From a virus (taxonomy: Duplodnaviria; Caudoviricetes): a DNA stretch of 64,000 nt. Location: IMG/VR virus record IMGVR_UViG_3300024493_000235, positions 204,443 to 268,442 of that record; one strand, given 5' to 3'. A program made the position numbers and the translations under genes. The notes beneath the pieces were generated by a model, which had not been told where the DNA came from, did no database searches, and saw nothing but the letters and a program-made list of their open reading frames with translations. Below, one piece after another: positions 1 through 47,913 of the stretch; the first letter of the stretch is position 1; every line of letters begins with the position of its first letter.

Positions 1-24
1 ATATATAAATAAAAAAATTGTTAT

Positions 25-45
25 TCCGGGCCATAAAGGCCCGGA
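25..45 (-). terminator. Intrinsic terminator hairpin
   Basis: TCCGGGCC-ataaa-GGCCCGGA, with a T-tract on the minus strand just after the stop of ORF 53..466. Confidence 0.75.
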
Positions 46-52
46 TTTATAT

Positions 53-466
53 TTAAGCAACATGCTTCTTTTCTTCAACAGAGTTATATTTAAACGCAAT
101 ATTTATACAGATCTTCTTATTTAAGAGATCTATTCCTGCATACGACACGTATACGTCACAATAGTGAAAAACGTTTTTCACAGCATCGCAGCGAGTATCA
201 GGTAAATTGATAATAGCTTGAGCTATACTTTCAAACGGATAATCTGACCTCATAATTCGATCGTTTCCGAATAAAGTAATTAATGCTCCATCCCCATTGA
301 GTTGTTTTGAAAGTTCAGGACATTTCCAATCGTCCAACACTTTACTGAAATCAATGGTGCAATAACAGGTATTTTTTCTGTCTACGATAGCACAATTTAT
401 GCTATCTATAACACCCTCAGAGAACAAGAAGTCTTGTATCTTTTCTTTTGTTAGCATGATAGCCAC
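53..466 (-). CDS. Hypothetical protein
   Basis: 137-aa ORF between a class I promoter motif (516-525) and a terminator. Confidence 0.65.
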   Translation of the reverse strand: MAIMLTKEKIQDFLFSEGVIDSINCAIVDRKNTCYCTIDFSKVLDDWKCPELSKQLNGDGALITLFGNDRIMRSDYPFESIAQAIINLPDTRCDAVKNVFHYCDVYVSYAGIDLLNKKICINIAFKYNSVEEKKHVA

Positions 467-701
467 CGTATTCCTTGTGTCATAAACCCTCCTTAAAATG
501 TCATTTCATACATTAATTATATATAATTATTTAGGCTTTTAAGTGTATTTGTTTTCATCATAAATCCTGCAATAACAAAGTCATAAATATGCAACACTTA
601 TGGGATATATGACCATTCGTTTGCAGAAATCCTGCAATATTACGAATGAATATATATCATATGTGTAGAGTTTACCAATCTATTTTCTGAAGGAGAAAAG
701 T

Positions 702-1112
702 ATGAGTGAAAAAGCGAGGGTCCTTCTCAATAAGGACCAGTTGGTCACCCAGATCAGCGAAGTTAGCGGGGAAACCAAGGCCGCTGTTGTGCGGGTAATG
801 GATGCAATTCCTCAGGTAACGATCAATGCCGTCCTCAAGGATCCGCCAAAATTGGGTGAAGTTGTTTCCGTACCGCTTCCCGGAATTGGTACATTTGGTG
901 CCAAGTTTGTCGCAAAGTCGGAAAGAATCAACAACATGTCGAAACAGAAGTACACGGTTCCCGCGCACATTGTTCCGACATTCAAGGTCACAAGGTCGAT
1001 AAAGGTCGAACTGAACCCCACAATGGTCAAAACCGCCGCCAAAGCAGCCACAAAACCGGATGCCAAGGCAGGAACTCCGCCCGACGCGAAATCCGCCAAG
1101 AAAACAGCTTAA
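702..1112 (+). CDS. hup: HU/IHF-family DNA-binding protein with Ala/Lys/Pro-rich tail
   Basis: NKDQLVTQIS helix, LPGIGTF strand and RINNMSKQKYTVPAHIVPTFK arm match the HU fold; AAKAATKPDAK tail; AAGGAG RBS. Confidence 0.85.
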   Translation: MSEKARVLLNKDQLVTQISEVSGETKAAVVRVMDAIPQVTINAVLKDPPKLGEVVSVPLPGIGTFGAKFVAKSERINNMSKQKYTVPAHIVPTFKVTRSIKVELNPTMVKTAAKAATKPDAKAGTPPDAKSAKKTA

Positions 1113-1154
1113 CAGTGTTTAACTGAAAGCTCATGGTAAACTTTAGGATTGTTT

Positions 1155-1181
1155 AAGGGGCCGAAAGCTCGGCCCCTTTTT
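1155..1181 (+). terminator. Intrinsic terminator
   Basis: AAGGGGCCGA-aagc-TCGGCCCCTT followed by TTT. Confidence 0.8.
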
Positions 1182-1197
1182 ATAAAGGAAGTGTGAT

Positions 1198-2271
1198 ATG
1201 TTAAGTCATTCCGAAGCCATAAGAGCCATGAGAGCTGAACTTGATAAATTCAAGGTATTAAAGCGATACCACGAAAAATCAGAAGATCATTGCAGGTGTC
1301 CTATATGCGGAGATTCGACAAAATCTCACAGAGTAGAACACTTATACATGAAACTCAAGAAAGACACTCATGACGATGCTGTTTACTTTTCATACCATTG
1401 TAAGTTGTGTGGTGCAAAAGCAAAGGTGTTTTCTGGAAAAGACATCAAAGCGTTTAAAATTAGAAATAAAGACCTTATAGAGTACATAGATAATACGGTT
1501 AAAAATCGTGGAAACTATGTACTAAAAAGTTCATATAATTACATCGGTAGGTCGCTACACAAGATTCCTATCGATTGCGATGTAACAGAAAAAATCGCAT
1601 ATATGCAACGAAGACTTGGAGACTGCAGAGTTGTACGAAATCCTGAAAAATTCAAAATTATCTACGATTTCGCATCATTCTTTAAAGAAAACTCGCTCCA
1701 AGTAAATACAGATTATGGAGAGATTTCTTATGTGAAGAAATTCCTTAGAGCTCTCCATGATAACTGTATCGGCTTTTTATCTTTCGATAACACATCAATT
1801 AATTTTCGTGATATCTCAAAAAATAATGTCATGGGAAAAAGATATATCCAATACAGGCTATATCCTGAAGCTACTTTAACAGTTGATGGTGCGAGCGTTT
1901 CATCGTTTTATACGATCCCAGGAGAGTTAAACTCTATGGCTCCAACTCTTAGTGCTGTTTTAGCCGAAGGAACATTTGATATCTTAAGGATATACTCCGA
2001 CTTCTATCCACAAGTGAAAAGAGACGATATTGTATTTGCATCAGTTGCAAATGCTCATGGATATTCAACTTTTTTAAAGAAATTCCTCGAATACGGGATT
2101 ATGTTTGATGATGTAACTATTTATTCAGACGATGATGTCCCTATAAAGAAATATAAAGAGTCTATAAGGCCCTTAATACCAGACGCAAAAATAACTATAC
2201 ATTATAATGCAGCTTCAAAGGATTATGGTGATAAACTTAAGCCTTTTGAAGACTCAACTTTCGCTATATAG
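1198..2271 (+). CDS. Phage DNA primase (Zn finger plus TOPRIM)
   Basis: CPICGDS...HCKLC zinc finger, and AEGTFD and SDDD TOPRIM motifs as in T4 gp61-type primases. Confidence 0.8.
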   Translation: MLSHSEAIRAMRAELDKFKVLKRYHEKSEDHCRCPICGDSTKSHRVEHLYMKLKKDTHDDAVYFSYHCKLCGAKAKVFSGKDIKAFKIRNKDLIEYIDNTVKNRGNYVLKSSYNYIGRSLHKIPIDCDVTEKIAYMQRRLGDCRVVRNPEKFKIIYDFASFFKENSLQVNTDYGEISYVKKFLRALHDNCIGFLSFDNTSINFRDISKNNVMGKRYIQYRLYPEATLTVDGASVSSFYTIPGELNSMAPTLSAVLAEGTFDILRIYSDFYPQVKRDDIVFASVANAHGYSTFLKKFLEYGIMFDDVTIYSDDDVPIKKYKESIRPLIPDAKITIHYNAASKDYGDKLKPFEDSTFAI

Positions 2272-2285
2272 GAGTATAATCCGCT

Positions 2286-3704
2286 ATGGAAGAAAAACTG
2301 CGCATAAAAAAGTTCGACCGTTTTCTTGACAATAATGAAATTGTCAAGTACGGGGATCAGTTAACTGTCTGTACATGTTATGACAGAACCAAAGGAGAGA
2401 AGCTGACTTCGGATATTATAACAGAATTCCTTGAAGAATTCGCGTATTCGAAGTATCATGCCTCCCTTCAAATTGCATACGTAATCCCCAATCATTTTGA
2501 TATCTCAGTCCCGATTACAATGAAAGAAAGGCTCGGCTGGTATTGTGAGCAAGACTCGTTAGGAAATCACTTCATCAAAGTACGATTCACCATGACAGAT
2601 GAACAGCACCGCCAGCAAATTGAAACATTTAGAAATTTCGGTGTCGATCTTAACATCCTACAACTCGGAGATAATGACGTTCTTGATATCGGAGAAATAA
2701 ATCCTGAATGTATCTTTAAGTTTACAATATCAAAGAACGCCATTTGGTGTATCAGGAGTGAACCGATAAAGATTTACAACGACGATGATAAAATTCCGCC
2801 TGAAGATGGGAACCTTATATCCCTTACTATGGAAAAATATCCGGATATTCAAAACCGTACATTTTCTCCAAATCAGGCTGGAATGATTTGTCTTTCTATC
2901 GTCACAGGAATGACCATATTTTCCGAAGAACATCTTGCGAGAGCACAAATAAAAGAAGAAGTGATTGACGAAGGTCATGTCACAATTCTTACCGATGACG
3001 ATTGCAAACTTCCCGATTTCTCTGTCGAGGAATTATACACCGATAATATCCCCGAAGATCAAAAAGAAGAAAGGGAGCAGCGTCTAAAAGAAATACAAAA
3101 AGAGGTATCACTAGCACAGAGACGAAAAAGTACATGGGAGAAGATTTTCTCATGTCCAAATCCGTTTATTCAAGAAATGCTTAACACTTGGATTACAACT
3201 CTTGAAAAGCCTCAGAATGACAATCAGATGCAAGTGTACTTAAGGGACTTTGAGAAATGGCTTATCGAGAAGAACTCACATGAAAAATTCATGAGCATTT
3301 TGAAAGCTGAAACAACCGATCAAAATCCCAACCTTGTTCAAAATATTGACTTTTCAAATCTTGTCATAACAGATGAACACCGGGAAGTGTATAATAAAAA
3401 GATAATCCCCTTAACAAAAATCTTTTCGCAGAAGATGGCTGATATAGGAAAAGAAATGGGTATCGAAGCAAATTGTGCTCAAGTTCCTGTAGAATATAGC
3501 GAAAGAATACAGCAAATACCAGAGCTTATTGAATATGAAAGATTAGCTTGGTTTTTAGCTCTTAACATAGCTTTCGCTAACGGACTTTTGAAAAAGGCTG
3601 ATGGCACATTATATGCGAAGGAAGAACTGGAAGGTAAATCTTTTGAGGAATTCCCGATTTTGAAGCATATCATTATGAAACTAAGTGACATGATGGAGTG
3701 CTAA
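2286..3704 (+). CDS. Hypothetical protein
   Basis: 472-aa ORF with AGGAG RBS. Confidence 0.75.
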   Translation: MEEKLRIKKFDRFLDNNEIVKYGDQLTVCTCYDRTKGEKLTSDIITEFLEEFAYSKYHASLQIAYVIPNHFDISVPITMKERLGWYCEQDSLGNHFIKVRFTMTDEQHRQQIETFRNFGVDLNILQLGDNDVLDIGEINPECIFKFTISKNAIWCIRSEPIKIYNDDDKIPPEDGNLISLTMEKYPDIQNRTFSPNQAGMICLSIVTGMTIFSEEHLARAQIKEEVIDEGHVTILTDDDCKLPDFSVEELYTDNIPEDQKEEREQRLKEIQKEVSLAQRRKSTWEKIFSCPNPFIQEMLNTWITTLEKPQNDNQMQVYLRDFEKWLIEKNSHEKFMSILKAETTDQNPNLVQNIDFSNLVITDEHREVYNKKIIPLTKIFSQKMADIGKEMGIEANCAQVPVEYSERIQQIPELIEYERLAWFLALNIAFANGLLKKADGTLYAKEELEGKSFEEFPILKHIIMKLSDMMEC

Positions 3705-3722
3705 CAAAACTATAGATTTTAT

Positions 3723-3750
3723 AACCCTGCGTATGCAGGGTTTATTTTAT
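3723..3750 (+). terminator. Terminator-like hairpin upstream of the uracil permease gene
   Basis: AACCCTGC-gtat-GCAGGGTT followed by TATTTTAT. Confidence 0.7.
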
Positions 3751-3766
3751 GTAAAGGTGGTTTATT

Positions 3767-4981
3767 ATGTTTTTTAGACCAGAAAGTGACGGCATCGCTA
3801 TTCAGAAGAAAATGGTGCTAGGTTTACAGCACACATTCACAATGTTCGGGGCTACGGTATTGGTTCCAATACTTACCGGATTAAATGTATCTGTTGCGCT
3901 TTTTATGGCTGGGGTATGTACAATTCTGTTTCACCTTATTAATCAGGGTAAAGTACCGATATTCCTCGGTTCCTCATTTGCGTATATTACTCCCATCATA
4001 ACTGTCGGATCTTTATTCGGGTTGCAATACGCACAAGGTGGCGTAGTGATTTCAGGCCTTGTATACGCGTTATTGGCATTAATCATTAAAGCATTCGGTG
4101 TTGAGAAGGTATTAAAATTCTTTCCACCAATAGTTACAGGTCCCATAATTGTGATCATAGGACTAACCCTTGCACCTGTTGCGGTATCCTCAGCATCGAA
4201 TGATTGGTTACTCGCTGCAATTAGTTTTATAATCGTACTTGTAATTGCAATTCTTACAAGAGGATTTATTAAAATGATTCCTGTACTTTGTGGCCTTGTT
4301 GGAGGATACATTGTTGCAGTATTGATGGGTAAAGTCGATTTTACTGCAGTAGGAGAAGCTGCATGGATTGGAATACCAGCTTTTACAATTGCAAAATTTA
4401 ATGCAAGTGCTGTACTACTTATAGTACCTGTAGCAATTGTAACCTTTGTTGAACACATTGGCGATATAATTGCTATCGGGACAGTTTGCAATAAAAACTT
4501 TGCGGAGGATCCAGGACTTCATCGGACTTTATTAGGCGACGGATTAATGACTTCGTTAAGCTCGATGTTTGGTGGCCCGGCGAATACAACTTACTCGGAA
4601 AACACTGGAGTAATAGCTTTGACAAAGGTTTTTGATCCATTTGTTATGCAAATTGCGGCGTGTTTTGCTATATTAATCAGTATGTGTCCAAAATTTGCCG
4701 CCGTAATAGCTTCAATTCCTGGTGGTGTCATTGGAGGAATTTCGATTGTGCTATTTGGCATGATTTCTGCTACTGGTATTCGTAGTATCGTTGATAATAA
4801 GGTTGATTTTTCGGCTCCTCGAAATTTATTCATCGCCGCCACGATCCTTGTAATTGGTCTCGGTGGTACCGGTATTCAAATCAATAATTCTCTCTCGATA
4901 TCTACAATGGCTCTTGCCGCTGTACTGGGGATTGTGTTAAATAAAGTACTTCCCCAAGTTAAGATTGACGAAAAAGGTTAA
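3767..4981 (+). CDS. uraA: Uracil permease, NCS2/NAT family (UraA/PyrP-like)
   Basis: GLQH, FLGSSFAYI, VEHIGD, LLGDG and PANTTYSENTGV NAT signature; many hydrophobic helices. Confidence 0.92.
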   Translation: MFFRPESDGIAIQKKMVLGLQHTFTMFGATVLVPILTGLNVSVALFMAGVCTILFHLINQGKVPIFLGSSFAYITPIITVGSLFGLQYAQGGVVISGLVYALLALIIKAFGVEKVLKFFPPIVTGPIIVIIGLTLAPVAVSSASNDWLLAAISFIIVLVIAILTRGFIKMIPVLCGLVGGYIVAVLMGKVDFTAVGEAAWIGIPAFTIAKFNASAVLLIVPVAIVTFVEHIGDIIAIGTVCNKNFAEDPGLHRTLLGDGLMTSLSSMFGGPANTTYSENTGVIALTKVFDPFVMQIAACFAILISMCPKFAAVIASIPGGVIGGISIVLFGMISATGIRSIVDNKVDFSAPRNLFIAATILVIGLGGTGIQINNSLSISTMALAAVLGIVLNKVLPQVKIDEKG

Positions 4982-4986
4982 TTAGT

Positions 4987-5021
4987 ACCTCTGGCCCGAT
5001 CGGGCCAGAGGTTATTTTTTT
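4987..5021 (+). terminator. Intrinsic terminator (perfect 26-bp palindrome)
   Basis: ACCTCTGGCCCGATCGGGCCAGAGGT followed by a T-tract. Confidence 0.8.
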
Positions 5022-5026
5022 ATTAT

Positions 5027-5165
5027 TTATATATCTATGATCCGAATCTAAAGGATATATAAATATACATAATCTATATAAGAAATAAGGAATTAAGATT
5101 ATTAAGTTTGGAGTTGTTAACTCGTGCTTATAACAAATATTCCTTAAAGTATTAAAGGAAATGGT
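5027..5165 (+). promoter_or_regulatory. Conserved promoter plus structured leader element, copy A
   Basis: Ungapped match to 46946-47078; 18-bp identical box, class I promoter motif and a three-stem hairpin with compensatory changes. Confidence 0.85.
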
Positions 5166-5762
5166 ATGATTGAGAAAAAAGCTTTTTCTATCTTCAATAT
5201 AATTGAGGGTACAGATCTTACACAAGGGTTTAACCAGCCGTATCTCTTGACATGCATCGCACAAGCTATCATCGGGCAATTTCACTTGAACCCGAATCTT
5301 GAAGGGTTTACAGTCGAATCTGTTACACACCCGTTTACAAAATACGAAAGCGGGTTTGTCCACAGAATTCACTATTACCAACTTGCAATAGTTCAAACAC
5401 CTTTGGATTCTCTTGGCCATATGCCGGAAACATGGAAGCCTATTATTTACGATGTCGTGTTTTACAATATAGGACTTAAAGGAAAAGTCCTTGTGAAATT
5501 TACGGCAAATATTCCGGAATGCCATGAACGGTATTACAATATTCTCGCCGGTGATAGTTTTATGGCTATGGTCAGCGATATTCAGAGAGTTATAGGCGGT
5601 AAGGTGGTTCCGTTCTACAACAACTTTGCTATCCTCACAAAAGAAGAATTTGACAAAGCTTTCCGTGATATGACGATGGAAAGTTGCGGCAAAGAAGATG
5701 AATACATAAAATACCAGCAGCGATACCTGAATCAAGGGGTATATACTCACAGGATTCTGTAA
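5166..5762 (+). CDS. Hypothetical protein (single-gene unit)
   Basis: 198-aa ORF between leader copy A and a terminator. Confidence 0.75.
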   Translation: MIEKKAFSIFNIIEGTDLTQGFNQPYLLTCIAQAIIGQFHLNPNLEGFTVESVTHPFTKYESGFVHRIHYYQLAIVQTPLDSLGHMPETWKPIIYDVVFYNIGLKGKVLVKFTANIPECHERYYNILAGDSFMAMVSDIQRVIGGKVVPFYNNFAILTKEEFDKAFRDMTMESCGKEDEYIKYQQRYLNQGVYTHRIL

Positions 5763-5767
5763 ACAAT

Positions 5768-5789
5768 CTCGGGGCCATATGGCCCCGAG
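5768..5789. terminator. Terminator between convergent genes
   Basis: CTCGGGGCC-atat-GGCCCCGAG. Confidence 0.8.
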
Positions 5790-5801
5790 TATTTTTCTTT
5801 G

Positions 5802-7694
5802 TTACAGGTTTTTTCGCATCTCTTCCATTTTGGGAGTTCGTAAGAATTGATTACTTGTCATAACAAGATCCAAAATGGAAATAGCGGCTGTAAGAATTTG
5901 TGTGTCAACTTCAGAGCTGTTTATAATAGCGTTGTTCTTCGTTGCATCGTTAGCTCTGTGTATTTCACGTTTATCGTTTATTAACGTATACGAATCTTCG
6001 TAGTTATCATTGATGATATCATACGTCCTATCGCTTTCGATGCATTCTTTAGCGATTTTATACGACTTCCTCCAAGACCTGAATTTGTTATCGATAATGA
6101 TTGCATAGGTTCTTGTATATGCTATGCAAATATTGTAAAGTATTTCGTACACATATTTATCGATACTCTTTCTGATATTCGACGGCATGGTTTTATTAAG
6201 GGATGTAGTAATTGAATCGACAAATTCTCGAAGCACAAGAGCGTTAAGATTGTTCTTATCGCGATTCTTATATTCTTCAAGAATTTTGTGGCATATTTTT
6301 GGAATGATTGTATTGCCACCGCATACGATTCCGCTTTTTATAGCGGACTTACATCCACGTACAGCATCATCGAAAAGATGCTGTTTGTTTTCTTTCTCCT
6401 CGATTGTATCCCCACCAACAAAGAGAGTTACCATGTCTCCGTATAAAGCGGCTTTTCTTCTTTGTAGTAAGAAGATATTGTACTGATTGTCAATGTGTGT
6501 TTCACTTTTCATCCGATCTATTTCTTTGTCGATATCATCGATTCTGAACTTGATTCTGTCGGTGTTGTTTTTTCCGCCTATGAAACGTGTATAATTTGTA
6601 GTTGAAGCTATAATCTTATTGCACGTTCCAAGATACGCATCATACTTTTGTGGATCAGCTTCGATTGGAAATTGTTTTGCGGAATCAACTGTGATAATTG
6701 AAGCGCTTATGTTATCGGCTAAGTCTTGAAGATTTTCTTTACCGATAGAAGATTCTGTGTCCATTTCTATGCACAAGAGCTTTAATATAGTGCCGTGTTT
6801 TTCTACGAACCTTATAATCGACTGCCTGAACGATTCTCTTGATGCTTCACAGAATCCTCCTGCTATAATAACAAGGGGACGAGAACATTTGCCAATGACG
6901 TATTCGATTACGTATCGTAGCGCTTCTATATCATGAGTCATGATATGGCCTTTAATAAGAAGAATCTTCGGATTCACATATACAGCGCGTCTGCCATCAG
7001 GTTCTGTAACCATTTCAGGAAGTAGCATTCCCCGGGTGATTTCAAAACCGCGATCAAGGTCATAATGTGTTACATTCGTTCTCGATAATTCTGCGTTCAC
7101 AAACCCGTGACCCGGATTTTTAAGAGAGCAAAACATATCAGATACGAGTTTTCCATTCTCCCAATCGTTATTAAGAGAGATGGATGCAACAGCTTGAATT
7201 CTCTGTTCGAAGGTGTCAGTTTTGTTATATCCGCCATCTTTGTACTCAATAAGCGGAATTGCGTTTTTCTTGACGATTTCGTTCAGTTTTTGCCCGATTA
7301 TCTTCAGAGATTCTGCTAAAAATTTAGGGGGTATGTGCCATTTCCTTGCCAGCTTTCGGATACGATACAATTCGTTCGCAATTACAACAGAACTTGTGGT
7401 TCCATCCCCTACTACATCATTTAGGCTTCCTGATATCTTTTGGAATAACCTTGCAGCAACTCTTGCCAATCTTGGGTAGAAAACTAAGGACCTGTAGACA
7501 GTCCATCCGTCTTTTGTAGTCGTATGATGAAGCATTTGATCTTCTATGATCGTATTTGCGCCATATGGACCTAATGTGCGTTTAAAGACAGCAGATTCAA
7601 AACGAAGTGTTCTTACAATCTCCTTGTCTAGCTCATCAGGCCCCGTGACATTTGAATACGTTTCATCTTTTCTCTTTAAAGGATTTAAAAACAT
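5802..7694 (-). CDS. groEL: Phage chaperonin (GroEL/Cpn60-like)
   Basis: TLGPYG, TTTKDGWTV, VGDGTTS, DDAVRG and VCGGN motifs; start moved to ATG 7694 behind AAGGAG. Confidence 0.9.
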   Translation of the reverse strand: MFLNPLKRKDETYSNVTGPDELDKEIVRTLRFESAVFKRTLGPYGANTIIEDQMLHHTTTKDGWTVYRSLVFYPRLARVAARLFQKISGSLNDVVGDGTTSSVVIANELYRIRKLARKWHIPPKFLAESLKIIGQKLNEIVKKNAIPLIEYKDGGYNKTDTFEQRIQAVASISLNNDWENGKLVSDMFCSLKNPGHGFVNAELSRTNVTHYDLDRGFEITRGMLLPEMVTEPDGRRAVYVNPKILLIKGHIMTHDIEALRYVIEYVIGKCSRPLVIIAGGFCEASRESFRQSIIRFVEKHGTILKLLCIEMDTESSIGKENLQDLADNISASIITVDSAKQFPIEADPQKYDAYLGTCNKIIASTTNYTRFIGGKNNTDRIKFRIDDIDKEIDRMKSETHIDNQYNIFLLQRRKAALYGDMVTLFVGGDTIEEKENKQHLFDDAVRGCKSAIKSGIVCGGNTIIPKICHKILEEYKNRDKNNLNALVLREFVDSITTSLNKTMPSNIRKSIDKYVYEILYNICIAYTRTYAIIIDNKFRSWRKSYKIAKECIESDRTYDIINDNYEDSYTLINDKREIHRANDATKNNAIINSSEVDTQILTAAISILDLVMTSNQFLRTPKMEEMRKNL

Positions 7695-7696
7695 TT

Positions 7697-8047
7697 TTAT
7701 TGCAAACTCCTTTTTGAATGAGCGATTTTCAAGATATAAAGCGTTCCTTTTCCTTCGGATATTTGATAGTAAAAACCATTTTCCGTAGGAAGCGGAATGT
7801 CGCAATTTTCAATGACATTGCGACAGCGAGATGTGAATCTAAAAGGAATTGAAAGAGTATTTTTTTGCATACTTTTGAAATCAACTCTTTCGACATTAAT
7901 ATCCCCTTTAGATTTGTGTGTTTCACTTATGCGCTTTAGAATGTCCCATGCTGTATTAACAAGCGCATCGTAACCCATTGCGATATCAAAACCATTCTCA
8001 GGTTTCTCACTACCGCAGAGTTGATTCACAAACGTAATTTTATTCAA
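7697..8047 (-). CDS. Hypothetical protein
   Basis: 116-aa ORF in the operon, TTG start after a purine-rich RBS. Confidence 0.55.
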   Translation of the reverse strand: MNKITFVNQLCGSEKPENGFDIAMGYDALVNTAWDILKRISETHKSKGDINVERVDFKSMQKNTLSIPFRFTSRCRNVIENCDIPLPTENGFYYQISEGKGTLYILKIAHSKRSLQ

Positions 8048-8075
8048 TTCCTTCCCCTTTTTTGATTTTCATGAG

Positions 8076-8312
8076 CTAATGCTTTGCGTTTTTAATGGCG
8101 TCAGCTTGCTCCTTAATAATCTGGATACGAGCTTCAGTTAAGCTCGCTAATGTGGGAAGATCCATTTCATCTAGTTCTGTGTGCGTGAATTTTCCATCAA
8201 ATAGCTGTAAGAGTTGGAGAGTATATTTTGAACTTTCGATAGCAATATCTGTTTTTATATACTCCCCATCCCTTGCAACTAGAACCCCTTTCGGCTTTTG
8301 GTTTCGAAAAAA
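8076..8312 (-). CDS. Predicted -1 frameshift extension of the 8279..10201 protein
   Basis: Open -1 frame from the T-TTT-TTC heptamer (8306-8312) to TAG at 8076-8078; no good start of its own. Confidence 0.65.
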   Translation of the reverse strand, partial: FFRNQKPKGVLVARDGEYIKTDIAIESSKYTLQLLQLFDGKFTHTELDEMDLPTLASLTEARIQIIKEQADAIKNAKH

Positions 8313-10201
8313 AGCGTCCGTGTATTAATGTCCCTCTGGTTAATAATACGGCCGCAATGCTTACATTTAACGCGCGGTATTTGATATGCAACAGAGAACC
8401 GCGTTATGTAGTTTATAATCTCCTTCTCAAACTGTTTCTTTTCATCAGGAGAGATATCGGCGATGGCTTTATCGATAGCCTCTACGCGCGTATCGAGGAA
8501 GTAGTTTGCCTCACCGGTTTGATTATAGTGTTTGATATCGATAATACCGACACCACGAATATATCCGGCATAAATCATGTCATGATAGAAGTCGTTTACA
8601 ACTTCTTCTTTTTTGCCCTTAAACGAATTCTCAAGGAACTCAAAGATACTCGGAGTGCGAGCCCTGAAGAAGCGACGGCCTTTCTCAATAAAGATGTCCA
8701 AGGCCGACCATCTTTGTGTCAACGCTTGAATCCTCTTTGGATCCCATGCCATCGGATTGTTGAGTATATCAGAAATTTGTTGTTGTGCGATACTGCCAGG
8801 AGGAATACATGCCAAAGTGTTTGTATCTATTTGTACGGATATATTCTTTCCGCAGAAGTTACAATCAAATGTAAAAGGTGTTTTTGAAGGATATGTGGCG
8901 TGATACAGGCCAAACATGAATGTCTGAAGGTCCGAATATGCTGTTGCATTCATCCATTGCTGGAATGTAAGGGCACCGCAAGAGAACTCGGAAAGTTTTG
9001 AATATATGGCGTTACATATGGCCATTTCGTACGCATATGTATTATCGTTTCCTTCTCTTCGTCCAAATGTACGAAGTTCACGAGAATTGAACGGTTTTAC
9101 CATACACGAATATCCTGATTGAACAGCGACAATCTGTACTTTCCTCAATCCGTCAAGAATGTTTTGTTCAAGTTCAACTTGTCTCATCATATAATCAGGA
9201 ATTGTTGAAGCTTCGACAACTGTCCGCTTTGAGATATCGATTTCTTTGCCTTGCAGTTTCTTAATTTCTGCAGTGCTCGCTTCAAATATCTTATAGTGTG
9301 TTGTCGTATAATCATTCAATTCGATTACTTGGACATCATTAAGCTGTTTTGAAGTTGTGAGATATCCGTTGTTGTCTTTTTCCAACTCTTCAAGTTGTCT
9401 CTTGTTTGCTTCTTCTTCCGTGATACTTTCAACGTATGTGCCTGGTTCAGCTTTATCATTCACATTTTCAAGCGGAATATCTTTATTGGCATCGGCTTTT
9501 TTGACTTCTGTATCTTCTACAGTTTGAGTCATTATATTATCAGAGATATTTGTTTCTCGCCATGAAAGTTCAACATTTTGTGCCGCTTCTTGTGTATTTG
9601 CTTGTGGAGCTTCGGCTGTTGGCGGATTTTCAGAAACTGGCGGTGCTGGGGGTGGAGGCGTGTCAGTAACTGGTTGCGATTCTATCGGAGGTGTATTGGG
9701 TTTCGTTGTTGCATCGTCTACATTTTGTGGAGGTACAGAAGTATCACTTTCTTCACCCGGTATAAATGATTGCACAACACCTTTTTCATTTTCAGGAATA
9801 ACCTCCGCATCCTCCGTAGTTGTAAACTGATCCGGTTTCTCTATTACAGTTGGCTGTTTTGCCGTCTGTAAAGCATCGTTGATTGTATCAAGTGAATGTG
9901 ATAAACCGTTAGGCGCTTCGACCTTCGGAATTGGAACGGCATCATGTGCCACTTCAGGAGGTGCTGAACGCACTTCTTCCTTTGGCTTTCCGTCAGATAC
10001 AGGCGGCGGATCCCTTTGAGCTTCGGGATCTTCAAGTCTGTGTCCGACTTCATTTTGTACGATTTGTTGTGGGCGATCCTGATTTTTTTCATTCAGTTTT
10101 TGAAGTTCTTGCTGCTTTCTTTCTTCCGCTGAAATGGATCCAGGTATATTTACACCAGAATCAAAATTAACCATCGGCGGGATTCCATTATTCTCAGTCA
10201 T
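8279..10201 (-). CDS. Baseplate hub/tail assembly chaperone-like protein (T4 gp26-like C-terminal domain, disordered N-terminus)
   Basis: Pro/Glu/Gln-rich N-half; C-half with CNFC and CKHC pairs and LFF near the end; same operon as a gp25-like gene. Confidence 0.5.
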   Translation of the reverse strand: MTENNGIPPMVNFDSGVNIPGSISAEERKQQELQKLNEKNQDRPQQIVQNEVGHRLEDPEAQRDPPPVSDGKPKEEVRSAPPEVAHDAVPIPKVEAPNGLSHSLDTINDALQTAKQPTVIEKPDQFTTTEDAEVIPENEKGVVQSFIPGEESDTSVPPQNVDDATTKPNTPPIESQPVTDTPPPPAPPVSENPPTAEAPQANTQEAAQNVELSWRETNISDNIMTQTVEDTEVKKADANKDIPLENVNDKAEPGTYVESITEEEANKRQLEELEKDNNGYLTTSKQLNDVQVIELNDYTTTHYKIFEASTAEIKKLQGKEIDISKRTVVEASTIPDYMMRQVELEQNILDGLRKVQIVAVQSGYSCMVKPFNSRELRTFGRREGNDNTYAYEMAICNAIYSKLSEFSCGALTFQQWMNATAYSDLQTFMFGLYHATYPSKTPFTFDCNFCGKNISVQIDTNTLACIPPGSIAQQQISDILNNPMAWDPKRIQALTQRWSALDIFIEKGRRFFRARTPSIFEFLENSFKGKKEEVVNDFYHDMIYAGYIRGVGIIDIKHYNQTGEANYFLDTRVEAIDKAIADISPDEKKQFEKEIINYITRFSVAYQIPRVKCKHCGRIINQRDINTRTLFFETKSRKGF

Positions 10202-10231
10202 ATTTCCTCCTTACAGAAATACATATTAGTT

Positions 10232-10825
10232 TTATAATACCACTGCTGCGACTTCTGAATCTTCAGGCGGAGCAAATGGATCTTGATTATTTTTCGGTTT
10301 TGGCGGTTCTTTTGTCATAGTTGTAAAAATCGGAGCATCTTCTGGTGGAACAGCGATTCCTTGTAAGAAAGGATTTCCAGGTTGTGTTGGAACTTTTTGA
10401 TGTCCGCTGGTGTAATCGATCCCGCTTTGAGGAATTGCAATTCCTTCTCTTCTAGCCAAATTCAATATCCCTCTTTCTTGCGCATTTAAAGGTCTTTGTT
10501 GTCCTTGTCCTTTCTGTTTCATACCGTTATTAACGTGTGCTTGATTATTTTTCATCATTGCAACGTACATCCTTTGCCGATTTAAAGCATCCTGTTTCAC
10601 ACTATCAGGAATATTTGGATCATTTTTCATTCTGCTTAAGTTTGGAGCTTCCTTTGCGGCTTGTATAAGAGCAGATTGCATGTCTGCAAATTCTTCTTTC
10701 GAATAAGGAACACCATCCATTTTTACTTTTCCAGAATGAATTTGATTTAAAGGATTGTCAGGGTCTCCCATTACTTGTGCTTGAGTTTGGGAAAGCATTT
10801 TTTTGTAATCATCTATCGTAGGCAT
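10232..10825 (-). CDS. Hypothetical protein (Gln/Pro-rich)
   Basis: 197 aa, AAGGAG RBS. Confidence 0.75.
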   Translation of the reverse strand: MPTIDDYKKMLSQTQAQVMGDPDNPLNQIHSGKVKMDGVPYSKEEFADMQSALIQAAKEAPNLSRMKNDPNIPDSVKQDALNRQRMYVAMMKNNQAHVNNGMKQKGQGQQRPLNAQERGILNLARREGIAIPQSGIDYTSGHQKVPTQPGNPFLQGIAVPPEDAPIFTTMTKEPPKPKNNQDPFAPPEDSEVAAVVL

Positions 10826-10840
10826 GTATTTCTCCTTAAA

Positions 10841-11320
10841 TTATGCGACATGGCTTATGAAAGGTGTTTTATCGATAGACACGTCTTTAACGTGTAATCG
10901 ACCATTACTTGCAGATCCGTCCCATTTTATCACAGTTCCGGTTTTCAGTTCTATCGATATTTTACAATCCTGAGATCCGTCCGATGTCGGAGCACGTGTA
11001 GAGGGAGCTATTTCAAAATGTACACCGGTGATAAATCCTTTTTCAATGAATCTATCTCCTAGCCACATAATATCATTTTGGATTCTTTCTGTTACCCTGT
11101 CTATTTCACTTATTATCCCACCATCGGAAGCTTTTTCAGCAAATTGTATCGATGACGTGTCTAATCCGCAATCAGGGCAATCCTGCATAGTCCCAGGTCT
11201 CATATTAAGCATATTTGAAAGAGCTAATATTTTATATCCTTCTCCGTATGGGTCATTTGTTTCAAGCATGCCATTAAATTTTCCAAACTTATAACGAAAG
11301 TCTATCACTCCTTGGGCCAT
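10841..11320 (-). CDS. Baseplate wedge protein, T4 gp25-like
   Basis: LNMRPGTMQDCPDCG resembles the gp25 LxTxPGER..PxFG motif; start moved to ATG 11320 behind AAGGAG. Confidence 0.5.
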   Translation of the reverse strand: MAQGVIDFRYKFGKFNGMLETNDPYGEGYKILALSNMLNMRPGTMQDCPDCGLDTSSIQFAEKASDGGIISEIDRVTERIQNDIMWLGDRFIEKGFITGVHFEIAPSTRAPTSDGSQDCKISIELKTGTVIKWDGSASNGRLHVKDVSIDKTPFISHVA

Positions 11321-11351
11321 ACTCAATCTCCTTGATACGAAATATGTGAAA

Positions 11352-11373
11352 AACATTTCATTAATAGATTGTT
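11352..11373. promoter_or_regulatory. Two divergent AACA-N6-TA promoters sharing one TA
   Basis: AACATTTCAT-TA-ATAGATTGTT between divergent genes. Confidence 0.7.
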
Positions 11374-11420
11374 GTTGTTCTAAAAAATAGTGAAAAATTT
11401 CTATAAAAAAGAAGGAAAAT

Positions 11421-12227
11421 ATGAAAATTCCTAATGTAAAGGTATTTAAATGTCCTATTTGCAAGAGATCGTTCTCATCAAAGCAAGCTGTGTACACCCA
11501 TATGTATAAAGAACACTCCGATGAAATACCCGACGGCATGAGTGCCGCACAGTACGCTTTTAATCTTCGTAATAATAAAGAATACGGTCTTTGTGTCCAA
11601 TGCAAAGTTGGAAAAACACCTTGGAACGAAGAAGCCGAAAGATATGATAGATTCTGCTGTGAAGAATGCAAAAACGCATATGTCGCAGAAGCTAAAAGAC
11701 GAATGGTTGCTAAGTATGGGAAAGAGCATCTTTTAGATGATCCAGATCATCAACAGAAGATGATGAATAACAGATCAATCTCAGGTGTTTATGTTTTTGA
11801 TACAGATAAAATCGCCGTAAAGTACAACAGCCAGTATGAATATGATTTTTTGCGTCATCTTAATTTAGGACATGGATGGCTTGGAAAAGATATCGTCCAA
11901 TGTCCGTTTGCATTTGAGTATGTACACGACTGTAAGAAAAAGTTATATATTCCAGATTATTGGATTATATCTTTGAACGCCGTTATCGAAATTAAGTCGT
12001 ATCAGAATAAGCACCATAAGATTCTTGAAGTTGATGTCGAGATGGAAAAATTAAAAGACGCCGTGATGGAAGAACAAACACAATATAACTACATTAAAAT
12101 TGTAGATGAAAAATACGTGTCTTTTTCTTTTTTTGTAAAACTCATTCAAGATTTATACTGGGATTGTAAAGATCCCGACATTCAACCTGAAGTTGCTGGA
12201 ATTAAAATAATTCCGCCAAGGAGTTAG
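11421..12227 (+). CDS. Zn-finger plus PD-(D/E)xK (TnsA-like) nuclease
   Basis: C2H2 finger CPIC...HMYKEH; YNSQYE...YIPDY...IEIK catalytic pattern. Confidence 0.7.
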   Translation: MKIPNVKVFKCPICKRSFSSKQAVYTHMYKEHSDEIPDGMSAAQYAFNLRNNKEYGLCVQCKVGKTPWNEEAERYDRFCCEECKNAYVAEAKRRMVAKYGKEHLLDDPDHQQKMMNNRSISGVYVFDTDKIAVKYNSQYEYDFLRHLNLGHGWLGKDIVQCPFAFEYVHDCKKKLYIPDYWIISLNAVIEIKSYQNKHHKILEVDVEMEKLKDAVMEEQTQYNYIKIVDEKYVSFSFFVKLIQDLYWDCKDPDIQPEVAGIKIIPPRS

Positions 12228-12228
12228 C

Positions 12229-12906
12229 ATGCTGACAGTAATAACAAAAAATCTCTTTAAAAAGCCAAAAAAAATAACACTTGCAAGAGCCATTCAAATA
12301 ATTGAAATGGAAGACCCGTATATCACAACAGATTGGCATCTTGGAAAGTTTATTAACAAACAACAGACAGAAGCTTCTTATCAGGAATATATCGAAAAGA
12401 CAAAGAAAATGATTGACAGACTTCAAAAAGCTGTAAAACCTGGAAAACCGATGTTGTGTCTCGGAGATATTACAGAAGAAGAGATGTATGACGAAGATTT
12501 GATTAAATGGCTTTACAACACCGTTGTTACGATACATGGAAGTCCAAAAATTTTAATAAAAGGAAACAACGATATTTTCGATGATGAATTTTATTATAAG
12601 CTCGGATTTGAATATGTGACAAAAAGAAATATCGTATCCGATAAACTTCGAATAGTTTTTTCTCATGAGCCTGTGTCTATAATAGACATGAAACTCTCCG
12701 AAAAGGATTGGCTTAATTTGCACGGACACAGTCACGGATCCGGTAAATTATACAACATGCAACCAGGGGATGCTAATTGTCATTTGGATGCTTTTCCGGA
12801 TTACAATTGGCAAGGCGTTCAAAAACTCTCGTACTATCTTAGCATGTTTCGCGCACATCCTGAAAAGTATAAGTGCGACGTTATTTATAAATACGGGTGG
12901 AATTAA
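12229..12906 (+). CDS. Calcineurin-like metallophosphoesterase
   Basis: DWHLG, LGD, GNND, SHEP and HGHSH motifs. Confidence 0.85.
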   Translation: MLTVITKNLFKKPKKITLARAIQIIEMEDPYITTDWHLGKFINKQQTEASYQEYIEKTKKMIDRLQKAVKPGKPMLCLGDITEEEMYDEDLIKWLYNTVVTIHGSPKILIKGNNDIFDDEFYYKLGFEYVTKRNIVSDKLRIVFSHEPVSIIDMKLSEKDWLNLHGHSHGSGKLYNMQPGDANCHLDAFPDYNWQGVQKLSYYLSMFRAHPEKYKCDVIYKYGWN

Positions 12907-12917
12907 AGGAGACACAC

Positions 12918-14081
12918 ATGAAAAGCTTGGATGATTATATTCCAAAAATCCCTATGGGTCTTGATGACAACGTTATTGATGTAGAAGACAATATTTCATA
13001 CGAGATTGTCAACGCCCTTTCTGAATTACATTGTACAACATCGGATTTGTTACAAACAGAATCCGAACTGGTTTTAAGATATATTTCAGACGAATATGGT
13101 ATATCGTTTGAAAATGTCGATGCGGATATCGGCATACAAATAGGGATAAAGCCTTCAAGAGATCCGCATACAGGAACACCGAATGTCCTTGATGTCAAAA
13201 TCAATTCAAGGGTCGGATTCTTTGAGTCTTTGGCAAAAAAGATGCGGGATTTGGCGCTACGAGTTGCAACCGCTATTCGTAACTTTTTTGTATCAATCCA
13301 TCATTTTTTTCAATCCAAAATTAGCAAAGTGGACAATATGCTTTTACATGCTAATTTTTCTATCGTTGATAAATATTACAGCGATACATCAAAATCTTGT
13401 AAGATAAAACTTACAAAGTATATGATAAATGATCCTATTGCTGAATACAAAAAAGATCAAGACGTATTGCGTCTTGCAGTTCCAAGATTAAAAGATGCAA
13501 TTATTACCCTTGTTGATCATATCGAAAATCCTATTACACTGCAAGAAAAAACTGGAAGTAAAAGTGATATGTACGTCACATACCAAAGAGACAGGGATGA
13601 AATCCAAACTCTATTTGATGAAATCTTTGGAAAGCTTGCAGGGCCTCACGTTAATCTCGAAATGATTCATGAAATGAATATCGCACGTGTTATTCGGCTT
13701 AAATACTTTGGAGATAAGAAAACCTCTGATATATTTGAAGTTCGAGATGTTATTCCAAATAAAGAAGTATTTGATACCATAACTTCTGATAATGCGTATC
13801 ATTCATTTAAGAATTTATTCAAACAATCCGATGAATGTCTTGAAATCGCATTGAAAGTCGCTAACAGGTTTAACAAAAGCCTCAGGATGATGTATAATTC
13901 TCCTTCGACTGTATATACAGAAATACAAGGAGTTATACTTAAATTTCGAGGTCTTCTTACAGCTTTATTGTACACGAATATCGCATATTGGGAATTATAT
14001 TTTTCAATACGACAGAATGCTTTGGCAGCCCTTCGTGCAATCATAAGAGACGATGTTGAAAAACAAGTTTCAAACAAATAA
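12918..14081 (+). CDS. Hypothetical protein, possibly an inner virion protein
   Basis: 387-aa helical ORF, AAGGAG RBS. Confidence 0.65.
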   Translation: MKSLDDYIPKIPMGLDDNVIDVEDNISYEIVNALSELHCTTSDLLQTESELVLRYISDEYGISFENVDADIGIQIGIKPSRDPHTGTPNVLDVKINSRVGFFESLAKKMRDLALRVATAIRNFFVSIHHFFQSKISKVDNMLLHANFSIVDKYYSDTSKSCKIKLTKYMINDPIAEYKKDQDVLRLAVPRLKDAIITLVDHIENPITLQEKTGSKSDMYVTYQRDRDEIQTLFDEIFGKLAGPHVNLEMIHEMNIARVIRLKYFGDKKTSDIFEVRDVIPNKEVFDTITSDNAYHSFKNLFKQSDECLEIALKVANRFNKSLRMMYNSPSTVYTEIQGVILKFRGLLTALLYTNIAYWELYFSIRQNALAALRAIIRDDVEKQVSNK

Positions 14082-14093
14082 AGACAAAGAAAA

Positions 14094-14126
14094 TAATGCA
14101 GGGTGGCTAACAGCCACCCTGCATTA
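14094..14126. terminator. Strong terminator hairpin
   Basis: TAATGCAGGGTGGCT-aac-AGCCACCCTGCATTA, 15-bp stem. Confidence 0.8.
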
Positions 14127-14203
14127 AAGAGGTGATAATCTCTCCATATTATATCTCCCCAGGCCCAACCAACACATATGATTTAGGAGAGTCTATATAT
14201 GGC

Positions 14204-14645
14204 AAAAATAAAAGCGGCAGGGGCAATCTGGCCCCTGCCGCCCGGCGGATCTGCAGCCCGATTCGGAATATAAATCCCGGACCGGTTTTCTTTAGTCTGC
14301 TAGATTGCGCCACTCTGAACCGCCGCGATTAAGCGGCAGTTAATAAAAATGACATGCAGGGCTTAGCATTGGCATGGCGTACCACATTATAATAGAGGCT
14401 TGCCGCCGCGGGAACAAGCCCGTGGCGGTGCATACTATAATGCGGGTTTTTAATCAGCGCCGGTTAGACGGGGTAACGGTTTTATCCATAATCCGCGGTA
14501 GTCGCCTTTGCATTTATCGCCCTACTGGGATGCCTTTTCCCGGATATTCTTTGGGAAGCGCGGCAGCTTTCCGCGCGACCTTTATCCCGGATCGCCGTTG
14601 CTAGCAAACGACAAGGCATTTTACATGGAACATGTCATCTTCACT
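14204..14645 (-). ncRNA. Large GC-rich structured RNA of unknown class
   Basis: Class I promoter motif at 14652-14661, terminator at 14204-14241, many stems with G-U pairs favouring the minus strand, no minus-strand ORF of 60 aa or more. Confidence 0.7.
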
Positions 14646-14688
14646 ACATAGATGATATATACGTAAAAACATTTTTGTTTCACGTATA

Positions 14689-15123
14689 TTATCCTGAAGC
14701 GTAACCGTTATTGAAAAACCAATTTGATATTGTACAAGCTATGATTGGACTTGTTTCATGGTTTATAAAGTTTACAATAATCGGTGTACACCTTGGAACA
14801 ATCGGATGCTCGATTTTCTTCGATTCATAAATGTGGATACGCATAGATTCATGCACGATTTTACTCGGCGTTGTAAGCTGTATCAAGACTGTACAACCTA
14901 TAAGTCTTGATTTGTCAAGATCACTTATTTCAGGTTTCATGATCTTTTTTGTCACGACTCTTGTTTCATTCGAGTATCTTGTCATTGCGTATATAGTTGT
15001 TTCTCCCATTTGAAAAGCTTCGTTTGGGATATTAGTAATACGATCCGCCAAGTGTTTGACTGGATCCGGCTTATAAAAGTCGTGACTTGTAAGAATTTTG
15101 CATTGTGTCATTATTGGGTTCAT
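14689..15123 (-). CDS. Hypothetical protein
   Basis: Last gene of an overlapping operon. Confidence 0.65.
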   Translation of the reverse strand: MNPIMTQCKILTSHDFYKPDPVKHLADRITNIPNEAFQMGETTIYAMTRYSNETRVVTKKIMKPEISDLDKSRLIGCTVLIQLTTPSKIVHESMRIHIYESKKIEHPIVPRCTPIIVNFINHETSPIIACTISNWFFNNGYASG

Positions 15124-16596: not shown

Positions 16597-16679
16597 ACAA
16601 GTGCCTCCTTTATAGTGATATTATATATAGTTATAACAAAAAATAAACATCACGGGATTTATAGAAATTTCCCGTGATG

Positions 16680-18099: not shown

Positions 18100-18112
18100 G
18101 ATTTTTCCCTTT

Positions 18113-18907: not shown

Positions 18908-19244
18908 GACGTTGATTCCTTTTTGATGTGCGAAAATGTTTACAAGATTGAATCCATTGTCCAATATCACGATGGTTATGCAATTTCAAAAGAATTGCGT
19001 TATCATTTGAAAGTATCTTTAATGTACAATCAATTTGCTCATTTATATTTCTTTTGAAATACTCAAGTGTTGTTACGGACAAAGATGGAATATTAAAAAG
19101 ATGAGTCTTTGTATATGAAAAGAACAAGAATTTTGTTTTAATAATAACTATATACGCATCTTTATTTTCTTGCTCTGAAGTTGCATGTTTAAATGAAAGT
19201 AATATTCCTTTAAGATGTAAGTATTTTACTTTTTCTTTTTTCAT
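18888..19244 (-). CDS. Hypothetical protein
   Basis: 118 aa, GAGG RBS. Confidence 0.55.
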   Translation of the reverse strand: MKKEKVKYLHLKGILLSFKHATSEQENKDAYIVIIKTKFLFFSYTKTHLFNIPSLSVTTLEYFKRNINEQIDCTLKILSNDNAILLKLHNHRDIGQWIQSCKHFRTSKRNQRHGLHNK

Positions 19245-19301
19245 AATATACCTCTGTATTGCAAAAAATACCTGCCACAGAATGTGGCAGGATATTGTGT
19301 A

Positions 19302-46918: not shown

Positions 46919-46948
46919 TAATTCGGGGCCAGTTTAGGCCCCGAATTA
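46919..46948 (+). terminator. Terminator hairpin
   Basis: TAATTCGGGGCC-agttta-GGCCCCGAATTA. Confidence 0.75.
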
Positions 46949-47087
46949 TATATCTATGATCCGTAACAATGAAAATTATGATTATATATAATATATATGA
47001 GAAATAAGAAATTAAGATTATACTGTTTGGAATCGTCGATTCGTGCAGGTAACAAGTATTTCTTAGAGTATCAAAGGATAAAAAGAT
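46946..47087 (+). promoter_or_regulatory. Conserved promoter plus structured leader element, copy B
   Basis: Ungapped match to 5027-5159 with compensatory stem changes. Confidence 0.85.
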
Positions 47088-47825
47088 ATGGATCCGAAAA
47101 AAGAATTGACTGTTAATAACTTGGAAATAACCACTGAAAAATATGATGAGCCGACACAGAGAAAAAAGTCTGACGGTTGGAAATTCAGGGTATACAATTC
47201 CGAGCTTTTAACAACCTCAAATGTGTGGTTCATTTCCGGGCATAGTGGCTCAGGAAAAACCTCACTAGCAAGTGAACTTGCAAAACGTTTCGGGCGTGAA
47301 AGATTTGAATTGGACTGGTTTGAATCTTTCGACGACGGTTTTACCGACACGAGGAATCCTGGTTACATCGTGCTTAAAGACTTCTATAAGGCAAGAAATC
47401 TTACACCGGAAATTGTAAAAAACACATACGACCATGCGTACGATAAACTCCTTGTTGATCTTATTCAGTATGCAATGATTCATCCGGTTTATAAAGGTAA
47501 GAAAATTATCATCGAGGGTTTGCAATTTATCGCTAAGTTTTATCTTATTTCCAAAATACGTAACGGCGATTTGTACATAAACTATCCTGTTATTATTCTG
47601 GATGTATCGGATGAACAGGCTATGAGTAATGCATACTACAGGCCGAGTAATGGAAAATTGTCGTGGAGTGAATTCGTAAAGGCAAGAAGAAACATGTACA
47701 GAAATTGGGAAAGCGCGTACAGGAGATTCTTGGAACTTGTCAAGAGAGAAAGACTTATTCACATCACAAGATTCTACAGAACTTCAGCATCATTGGATTT
47801 CTTTATAGCTGATTTATCAGTTTAA
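47088..47825 (+). CDS. P-loop kinase-like protein (single-gene unit)
   Basis: ISGHSGSGKTS Walker A, ELD and IIIEG, typical of the nucleoside/nucleotide kinase fold. Confidence 0.7.
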   Translation: MDPKKELTVNNLEITTEKYDEPTQRKKSDGWKFRVYNSELLTTSNVWFISGHSGSGKTSLASELAKRFGRERFELDWFESFDDGFTDTRNPGYIVLKDFYKARNLTPEIVKNTYDHAYDKLLVDLIQYAMIHPVYKGKKIIIEGLQFIAKFYLISKIRNGDLYINYPVIILDVSDEQAMSNAYYRPSNGKLSWSEFVKARRNMYRNWESAYRRFLELVKRERLIHITRFYRTSASLDFFIADLSV

Positions 47826-47913
47826 AAACATAGAGCTGCGTAATGCAGCTCTATGTTATTTTTTTATAAATATATTTTTAAGTATATATAATATGCAAAA
47901 AGGAGAGATACAA

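Follow-up and report, generated by a model that had tools for sequence, protein, structure and literature searches.

A subset of early genes in an uncultured AR9-like jumbo phage is preceded by a selected, uncatalogued leader RNA that occupies a fixed place between an AR9-type early promoter and the ribosome-binding site (RBS). Covariance-model searches and compensatory base changes establish its fold, its loops are conserved in sequence, and the hairpin separates the early genes that carry it from a larger set served by short leaders. The function that we propose, a cis-acting protein-binding operator that would govern how well these early messages are translated and/or how stable they are, is tentative, and we assign it a probability of roughly 0.45.

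The phage and the analyzed window

The DNA analyzed here, hereafter the window, comprises the last 64 kb (positions 204443-268442, + strand) of a 268,442-bp IMG/VR virus record with an estimated completeness of 91%; genome coordinates are obtained by adding 204,442 to window coordinates. The DNA of this uncultured giant phage (268 kb) is present in full in a termite-gut metagenome run, and metatranscriptome contigs document its transcription in the termite gut (coverage within window 1-20000, where the stretch 4003-6670 with copy A of the leader lies outside the covered parts). Among its genes are those for split beta and beta' RNA polymerase (RNAP) subunits of the jumbo-phage type and for a GroEL-like chaperonin whose best relatives, 25-29% identical, are found in Bacillus phages AR9, PBS1 and BpSp, Listeria phage LPJP1 and Staphylococcus phage S6. 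The relatives of the chaperonin and the split RNAP subunits together identify it as a distant, uncultured AR9-like jumbo phage of Firmicutes.

Just 5' of leader cassette A, a gene for a full-length xanthine/uracil permease lies at window 3767-4981 (+; Pfam PF00860, E 2e-93). AR9 and PBS1 are uracil-DNA phages, and in a relative of these phages a nucleobase importer is a suggestive auxiliary gene. Elsewhere in the window, the bin at 14008-14674 reached metatranscriptome word depths of 2112 and 455 in two runs, compared with 0-16 in all other bins except 668-1334. A small gene at window 702-1112 (+) also presents high RNA depth (316 and 130 in the two metatranscriptome runs) and is probably HU-like, an assignment based solely on where a relative has its Bac_DNA_binding gene. 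One RNA contig omits 86 nt (1039 to 1126) over the 3' end of this gene, possible causes being sequence variation, misassembly or RNA processing.

Two cassettes share a covarying leader

An earlier note on this DNA had described two copies of a promoter-leader element, A and B, aligning without gaps between window positions 5027-5159 and 46946-47078 at an offset of 41,919. We reproduced this alignment and found in both copies the common order that had been described: terminator, 18-mer, diverged spacer (of equal length), AT-rich promoter, leader and RBS (Table 1). The 18-mer is identical in A and B, and these are its only two sites in the 268-kb genome when up to two mismatches are allowed. The two 79-nt leaders (5080-5158 and 46999-47077) differ at 17 positions by our count, instead of the 16 first given, a figure that fits if the +1 position is omitted. 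As had been stated, ten of the differences belong to five compensatory pairs (P1 contributes one, P2 and P3 two each) and another changes a U-A pair to U-G; pairing is disrupted by none of the 17. The proteins encoded downstream of the two copies are, as had been noted, unrelated (BLASTP E 0.6).

When folded alone, copies A and B adopt an identical minimum-energy structure, composed of an 8-bp P1, a 5x5 internal loop, an 8-bp P2 interrupted by a single bulge, a second, small internal loop and a P3 of 5 bp, or 6 with a closing U-G, capped by a GUU or GUC loop. Shifting the 3' partners by 1-3 columns in the comparison of A with B leaves 38-48% of cells paired and 0-1 double changes. The shuffle control on two sequences is weak (18/500), and the decisive support comes from the further copies in the genome.

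Table 1. Features of cassettes A and B and genomic positions of the leader copies (window coordinates unless given as genome positions).
Feature	Position	Strand	Remarks
Intrinsic terminator of the upstream uracil/xanthine permease gene	4987..5022	+	11-bp stem with 8 G-C pairs, then T-run; 5' boundary of cassette A
18-mer TTATATATCTATGATCCG, common to copy B	5027..5044	+	Two genome sites only; 3' end CCG runs on as CCGAATCTAAA to 5052
AR9-type early (putative virion RNAP) promoter, copy A	5061..5079	+	13-mer AAATATACATAAT and 6-nt spacer CTATAT; position-weight matrix scan
Leader RNA, copy A	5080..5158	+	Predicted +1 at 5080; hairpin 5086-5146
P1, copy A	5086-5093/5139-5146	+	Fold and covariance model
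Internal loop, copy A	5094-5098/5134-5138	+	UAAGA/CAAAU; fold and covariance model
P2, copy A	5099-5107/5126-5133	+	One bulge; fold and covariance model
P3, copy A	5111-5115/5119-5123	+	Loop GUU 5116-5118; fold and covariance model
RBS (AAAGGA) and ATG of gene A	5154..5168	+	ATG at 5166
Gene A	5166..5762	+	198-aa orphan; no Pfam/PHROG match, no homologue among 5.8 billion proteins
Terminator ending single-gene unit A	5768..5798	+	
Terminator-like hairpin 5' of cassette B	46922..46945	+	
Second copy of the 18-mer and probable upstream promoter box	46946..46963	+	
AR9-type early promoter, copy B	46980..46998	+	GATTATATATAAT and ATATAT
Leader RNA, copy B	46999..47077	+	Predicted +1 is the G at 46999; hairpin 47005-47065
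Gene B	47088..47825	+	245-aa P-loop NTPase-like protein; terminator next, then short-leader early promoter
Nine clear leader copies	Genome 63053, 69746, 70671, 87291, 88577, 107506, 151875, 209522 (A), 251441 (B)	+	
Degenerate tenth copy	Genome 25248-25338		

The fold is conserved in nine genomic copies

A covariance model built from copies A and B (R1) identified six more copies in the genome, and a model built from eight copies (R2) added a ninth (E 5e-8). The nine copies, with E-values ranging from 6e-18 to 5e-8, all lie on the + strand. The R2 search also returned a weak tenth copy, likewise on the + strand, which has an identical P3 hairpin and keeps the overall architecture, with loss of the conserved internal loop. 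Five of the ten copies fall within genome 63-89 kb, where two pairs lie in adjoining cassettes. The suggestion that the leader marks a set of genes is thereby borne out with nine clear copies and a degenerate one in place of two. The covariance-model check that had been recommended, of the Infernal type, yielded these further copies in the genome, none in the five cultured AR9-like phages searched and no match in Rfam.

Across the eight distinct copies, in an alignment fitted to the model, 97.6% of pair cells are standard and 16 of the 21 pairs present double changes. In 500 shuffles, neither the pairing nor the covariation score of the real alignment was reached, and partners slid out of register are 34-49% paired. 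RNAalifold recovered the same three helices de novo from an independent MAFFT alignment, with compensatory changes at 16 of 22 pairs. Furthermore, the ninth copy changes the otherwise invariant P2a helix from UUAU/GUAA to UUGC/GUGA while keeping the pairing. All of this covariation is among paralogues within one uncultured phage genome. Together, these results demonstrate that the leader fold is under selection, as had been proposed from copies A and B.

The hairpin spans 61 nt (predicted +7 to +67) and comprises 21 bp in three helices; it is AT-rich, has no U-run, and its 3' end lies 9-12 nt ahead of the Shine-Dalgarno (SD) sequence and 19-25 nt ahead of the AUG. Several of its parts are conserved by sequence, namely the 5x5 loop (UUAGA/CAAnU), the UUAU/RUAA helix and the apical G-R-A-U-C GUU hairpin with a 3' GYG. 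Mean column entropy is lower at internal unpaired positions (0.58) than at paired positions (0.83), which indicates that structure is preserved in the stems and sequence in the loops. Variability is highest in P1 and lowest in the apical loop, in the UUAGA/CAA loop and in the UUAU/RUAA helix next to it. The stability of the fold is modest, at -13 to -18 kcal/mol with a z-score of about -1 to -1.7. In eight of the nine copies the sense strand gives the more stable fold (summed energies of -136.9 kcal/mol, against -105.3 kcal/mol for the antisense strand) and the minimum-energy folds contain 0-3 G-U pairs per copy, so that selection appears to act on RNA, or at least on the coding strand, and not on a symmetric DNA cruciform.

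Several further structures were considered and rejected. A pseudoknot between the apical GUU and the AAC of the internal loop lacks covariation, as copies with GUC retain AAC. A late promoter within the leader, consisting of the conserved AACA followed by TA/TG at the right distance, is present in one of the nine copies only, and the sequences do not appear to fit the consensus of a kink-turn, a loop E or a UAA/GAN internal loop. A search for an RNA partner of the leader in the abundant non-coding RNA (window 14150-14720) and genome-wide returned nothing convincing. Two copies also contain upstream reading frames: in the degenerate copy, an SD and an ATG at the predicted +1 open a 22-codon frame that runs through the hairpin and stops just ahead of the main RBS, and in copy H an ATG at +1 opens a 30-codon frame that ends across the main ATG.

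Early messages fall into two leader classes

Every leader is preceded by the motif (a/g)(a/g)gTATATAT(A/C)AT and six nucleotides, followed by the first leader base, which is G in five copies and A in four. This AR9-type promoter is present in all nine copies; in B and E, the 13-mer shares 10 of its 13 bases with that of AR9, and the spacing is the same. What had been labeled a class I promoter is therefore an AR9-type early promoter, and no sigma-70-type promoter was found in window 4900-5900. In AR9, differential RNA-seq (dRNA-seq) together with primer extension placed 41 early transcription starts at AAATATATATTAT-(6N)-G+1, many of the early promoters carry CCGTATTAAAA at about -39, and transcription from these promoters has been attributed to the injected virion RNAP (PMC5312081). 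Homology to the mapped AR9 sites places the predicted +1 at leader column 1, six nucleotides 5' of the hairpin, which would thus begin at +7, and suggests use by a virion RNAP. The same homology argues against a start site downstream of the hairpin, the case that the earlier note had named as refuting a role as RNA.

Copies A, B, C, D and H present CCG(A/T)A... or CGTATCTACA at about -38. In copy A, this is the 3' end of the 18-mer, which resembles the CCGTATTAAAA box of many AR9 early promoters (by comparison with AR9 Table S2). Since these CCG boxes match the -39 box of AR9, the 3' end of the 18-mer is probably an upstream promoter box. The identity of the 18-mer in A and B is probably explained in part by this box and for the remainder by the status of A and B as closest paralogues.

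A position-weight scan detected at least 36 AR9-type early promoters in the genome. Most of the others (about 25) have a start codon within 11-22 nt and a strong AAGGAG, and the hairpin is found only at nine or ten promoters. We therefore distinguish two classes of early messages, with hairpin leaders and with short leaders. Mean SD energy is -7.1 kcal/mol in the hairpin class and -8.4 kcal/mol in the short-leader class, a trend only (P = 0.09) towards weaker SDs with the hairpin. The two classes adjoin each other on the genome, as a short-leader early promoter for the next gene (aagTATATATAATatgcaaA, then AAGGAG; window 47826-47892) directly follows the terminator of gene B. Five more early-type promoters precede other long leaders or non-coding stretches unlike the hairpin (genome 25930, 109056 and 196293 on the + strand; 219087 and 268369 on the - strand), which may be further structured leaders or small RNAs. 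One RNA contig begins at window 708, compared with a predicted unit start at 666.

The leader serves mostly monocistronic, unrelated genes

Seven of the ten genes downstream of the leader (A, C, D, E, F, G and J) have no Pfam or PHROG match. Gene I encodes a DHH-phosphoesterase-like protein and, like gene A, has no homologue among 5.8 billion proteins, while the product of gene H carries a lipoprotein-like signal peptide and has a marginal PHROG hit of unknown function only. In eight of the ten units the gene runs directly into a terminator-like hairpin, which indicates that the units are mostly monocistronic, and a new early-type promoter lies beyond genes B, H and I, the units where the next stretch was read. 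Homologues of gene B are 36-40% identical; the 36%-identical one lies on another metagenome contig, where it is preceded by a promoter of this type and a short leader, so that the hairpin leader is not needed for gene B as such.

Distribution of the leader

The statement that the leader matches no known family was upheld. Searches against Rfam 15 identified only a tRNA in the window, and at E<=10 the matches sit on upstream terminators, on the opposite strand or on the start of gene B, with none on the leader. Blastn of the element and its neighborhood against INPHARED produced no match, and R2 found nothing significant in AR9, BpSp, Internexus, LPJP1 or S6. Pattern scans of IMG/VR (three patterns), 241 million JGI metagenome records and GTDB genomes returned few hits, all of which fail the model. 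The pattern used for the JGI metagenomes and GTDB, and also for IMG/VR, matches seven of the nine copies in the phage itself, so that divergent homologues could be missed.

Two uncultured relatives, with RNAP beta subunits 74% and 66% identical, use the same early promoter motif, and the leader was not found in the approximately 32 kb available of each. At the site syntenic to copy A, both relatives lack gene A and also the permease gene. Its confinement to this phage in these searches and the short leader of the gene B homologue suggest that the leader is lineage-specific and cassette-borne, and that it is not tied to particular genes.

Discussion

The results presented above are consistent with the following model. 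Injected virion RNA polymerase would read the AR9-type promoter and start at leader column 1 (the G or A of GAGAAA), and nucleotides +7 to +67 would then fold into the three-helix hairpin, with P1 free to vary and conserved as structure only. The conserved loops would provide a docking site for a factor acting in trans and recognizing specific sequence, most likely a protein of the phage, that would act post-transcriptionally on the hairpin-bearing early messages and set their translation and/or lifetime; the approximately 25 early messages with short leaders would escape it. The cassette, made up of terminator, promoter, leader and RBS, has been copied ahead of at least nine unrelated early genes, mostly monocistronic orphans. 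The conservation of loop sequence favors sequence-specific recognition over a purely passive hairpin, and the evidence leans to protein binding and against a riboswitch. Direct occlusion of the RBS is not obvious, given the distance from the end of the hairpin to the AUG. A profile search for RegA (PF01818) gave no match in the phage, and its control matched in no genome either.

A passive 5' stabilizer or insulator comes next after the protein operator, although we consider it unlikely. Such a hairpin would require no factor, guarding the message against 5'-end-dependent decay of the RNase J1/RNase Y type known in Firmicutes and shielding the RBS from pairing with the open reading frame, in the manner of the B. 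subtilis aprE and ermC leaders, which act as 5' stabilizers. It would account for a hairpin that is set 7 nt from the predicted 5' end and keeps a fixed spacing to the RBS in every copy, for a cassette that precedes unrelated reading frames, and for short-leader early messages that have a strong SD at their 5' end instead. Structure alone, however, does not explain why the loops and the P2a helix exceed the stems in sequence conservation, and both the modest stability of the fold and the six unpaired nucleotides 5' of the hairpin speak against this reading.

Cleavage by a dsRNA-specific endonuclease (host RNase III or similar), trimming the leader and setting the fate of the message, is a rather improbable explanation. 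The irregular 21-bp helix, with about 29 stacked positions and small internal loops, is repeated in early transcripts and offers the two or so helical turns of mostly continuous double-stranded RNA expected of such a site, and SP82 early mRNAs are described as substrates of B. subtilis RNase III (Panganiban and Whiteley 1983, as cited in PMC4838370). Profile searches, however, detected no RNase III or dsRBD protein among the phage genes, and a constitutive host enzyme would confer no temporal control. Moreover, the hairpin lies at the extreme 5' end of single-gene units and not between cistrons, where a cut would merely expose a 5' monophosphate.

We regard as very unlikely that the nascent hairpin modifies the virion RNAP co-transcriptionally through pausing, antitermination or hand-over, either on its own, as in HK022 put, or with a protein, as in lambda nut/boxB. 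The fixed promoter-proximal place of the hairpin in every copy and a non-canonical polymerase would suit this explanation, but antitermination presupposes a long operon with internal terminators, and eight of the ten units instead consist of one gene followed by a terminator, with a new early promoter after genes B, H and I, leaving nothing to read through.

That the conserved loops form a small-molecule pocket controlling the downstream gene is highly improbable. Covarying stems with conserved unpaired nucleotides are aptamer-like, and the size is near that of small hairpin-type riboswitch classes, but the leader lacks an expression platform: the hairpin is not followed by a terminator, there is no alternative helix to compete with the SD, and the SD is unpaired or weakly paired in the minimum-energy folds that include it. 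The genes served by the nine copies (six orphans and the P-loop NTPase-like, DHH-like and lipoprotein-like-signal proteins) have no metabolic theme, the Rfam riboswitch families give no match, not even a weak one, and the GTDB pattern scan did not find the motif in bacterial genomes. Finally, a DNA-level element without RNA function, whether an extruded hairpin of the N4 virion-RNAP type, whose early promoters form hairpins with the 5-6-bp stem and 3-nt loop also seen in P3, or a repeat for PeSL-like shuffling of cassettes duplicated ahead of orphan genes, can be largely discounted, since G-U pairs and the energy gap favor the sense strand, three nested helices covary over 61 nt where a recombination repeat needs identity, and the upstream promoter is complete without the hairpin at approximately 25 other sites.

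The protein-operator reading can be extended into a bolder proposal, which we put forward as speculative and rather doubtful. The hairpin would be the address tag of a phage-specific post-transcriptional regulon, in which a dedicated RNA-binding protein, delivered with the virion or made early, reads the loops on one third of virion-RNAP transcripts and controls their timing, translation or routing, for instance out of an early-infection or nucleus-like compartment. If true, this would constitute a new RNA-protein control system for jumbo phages with their own multisubunit polymerases. The leader bears on how jumbo phages that import such polymerases sort their early messages after transcription. 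The leader can serve as RNA bait for the factor that reads it, the parts of the cassette can be tested separately, and the hairpin is a candidate for a new Rfam family.

Comparison with known systems

AR9 is the closest biological context for the leader. It is a distant relative that shares two split multisubunit RNAPs and the grammar of early promoters (13-mer, N6, G+1 and an upstream CCGTAT box), and its early 5' UTRs are likewise mostly short, with a minority of long ones (Lavysh et al. 2017, PMC5312081). The AR9 early 5' UTRs also contain a predicted motif that the same study left unexplained (PMC5312081). In the AR9 genome (KU878088), g152, g200 and g292 have early UTRs of 78, 78 and 79 nt, each containing a 30-46-nt hairpin 1-5 nt from the start site. 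The loop of the g200 hairpin reads GUAACAAG, an octamer that copy B also has as the 3' strand of its internal loop 1; this may be a coincidence in AT-rich sequence. Unlike the leader copies, these AR9 hairpins have no demonstrated homology or covariation, and R2 finds nothing in AR9.

The PeSL cassettes of the T4-type phages RB49 and phi1 (Arbiol et al. 2010, PMC2839356) are likewise compact and multi-copy, combining a terminator hairpin, an early promoter and an SD ahead of orphan genes in plastic early regions. The cassettes described here are placed in the same way, also in many copies, and recombination plausibly accounts for the spread of both kinds. The PeSL promoter, however, is of the sigma-70 type and its stem-loop is a G/C-rich terminator or attenuator 5' of the promoter or overlapping it (PMC2839356), whereas the leader cassettes use an AR9-type early promoter followed by a covarying AT-rich hairpin 3' of +1, and their terminator is a separate GC-rich element ahead of the promoter. 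The likeness to PeSLs therefore holds at the level of the repeated cassette and does not extend to the covarying transcribed hairpin.

Irregular hairpins of about 20 bp whose internal loops are conserved also recur in the early transcripts of other phages, as the RNase III sites of T7 early RNA and SP82 early mRNA. Those sites are intercistronic or known to be cleaved, whereas the hairpin described here is predicted to lie at the 5' end of single-gene units. Translational operators such as the T4 RegA and gp32 sites and the leaders of ThrRS and ribosomal-protein genes are cis-acting RNA sites at or upstream of the RBS, through which one protein acts on one or many messages, and T4 RegA defines a subset of early messages. 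In contrast to these operators, the leader hairpin does not overlap the RBS, and it is matched by no Rfam leader family. What the present analysis adds is a leader with a fold that covariation among nine paralogous copies establishes, and the resulting division of early genes into those with hairpin leaders and those with short leaders.
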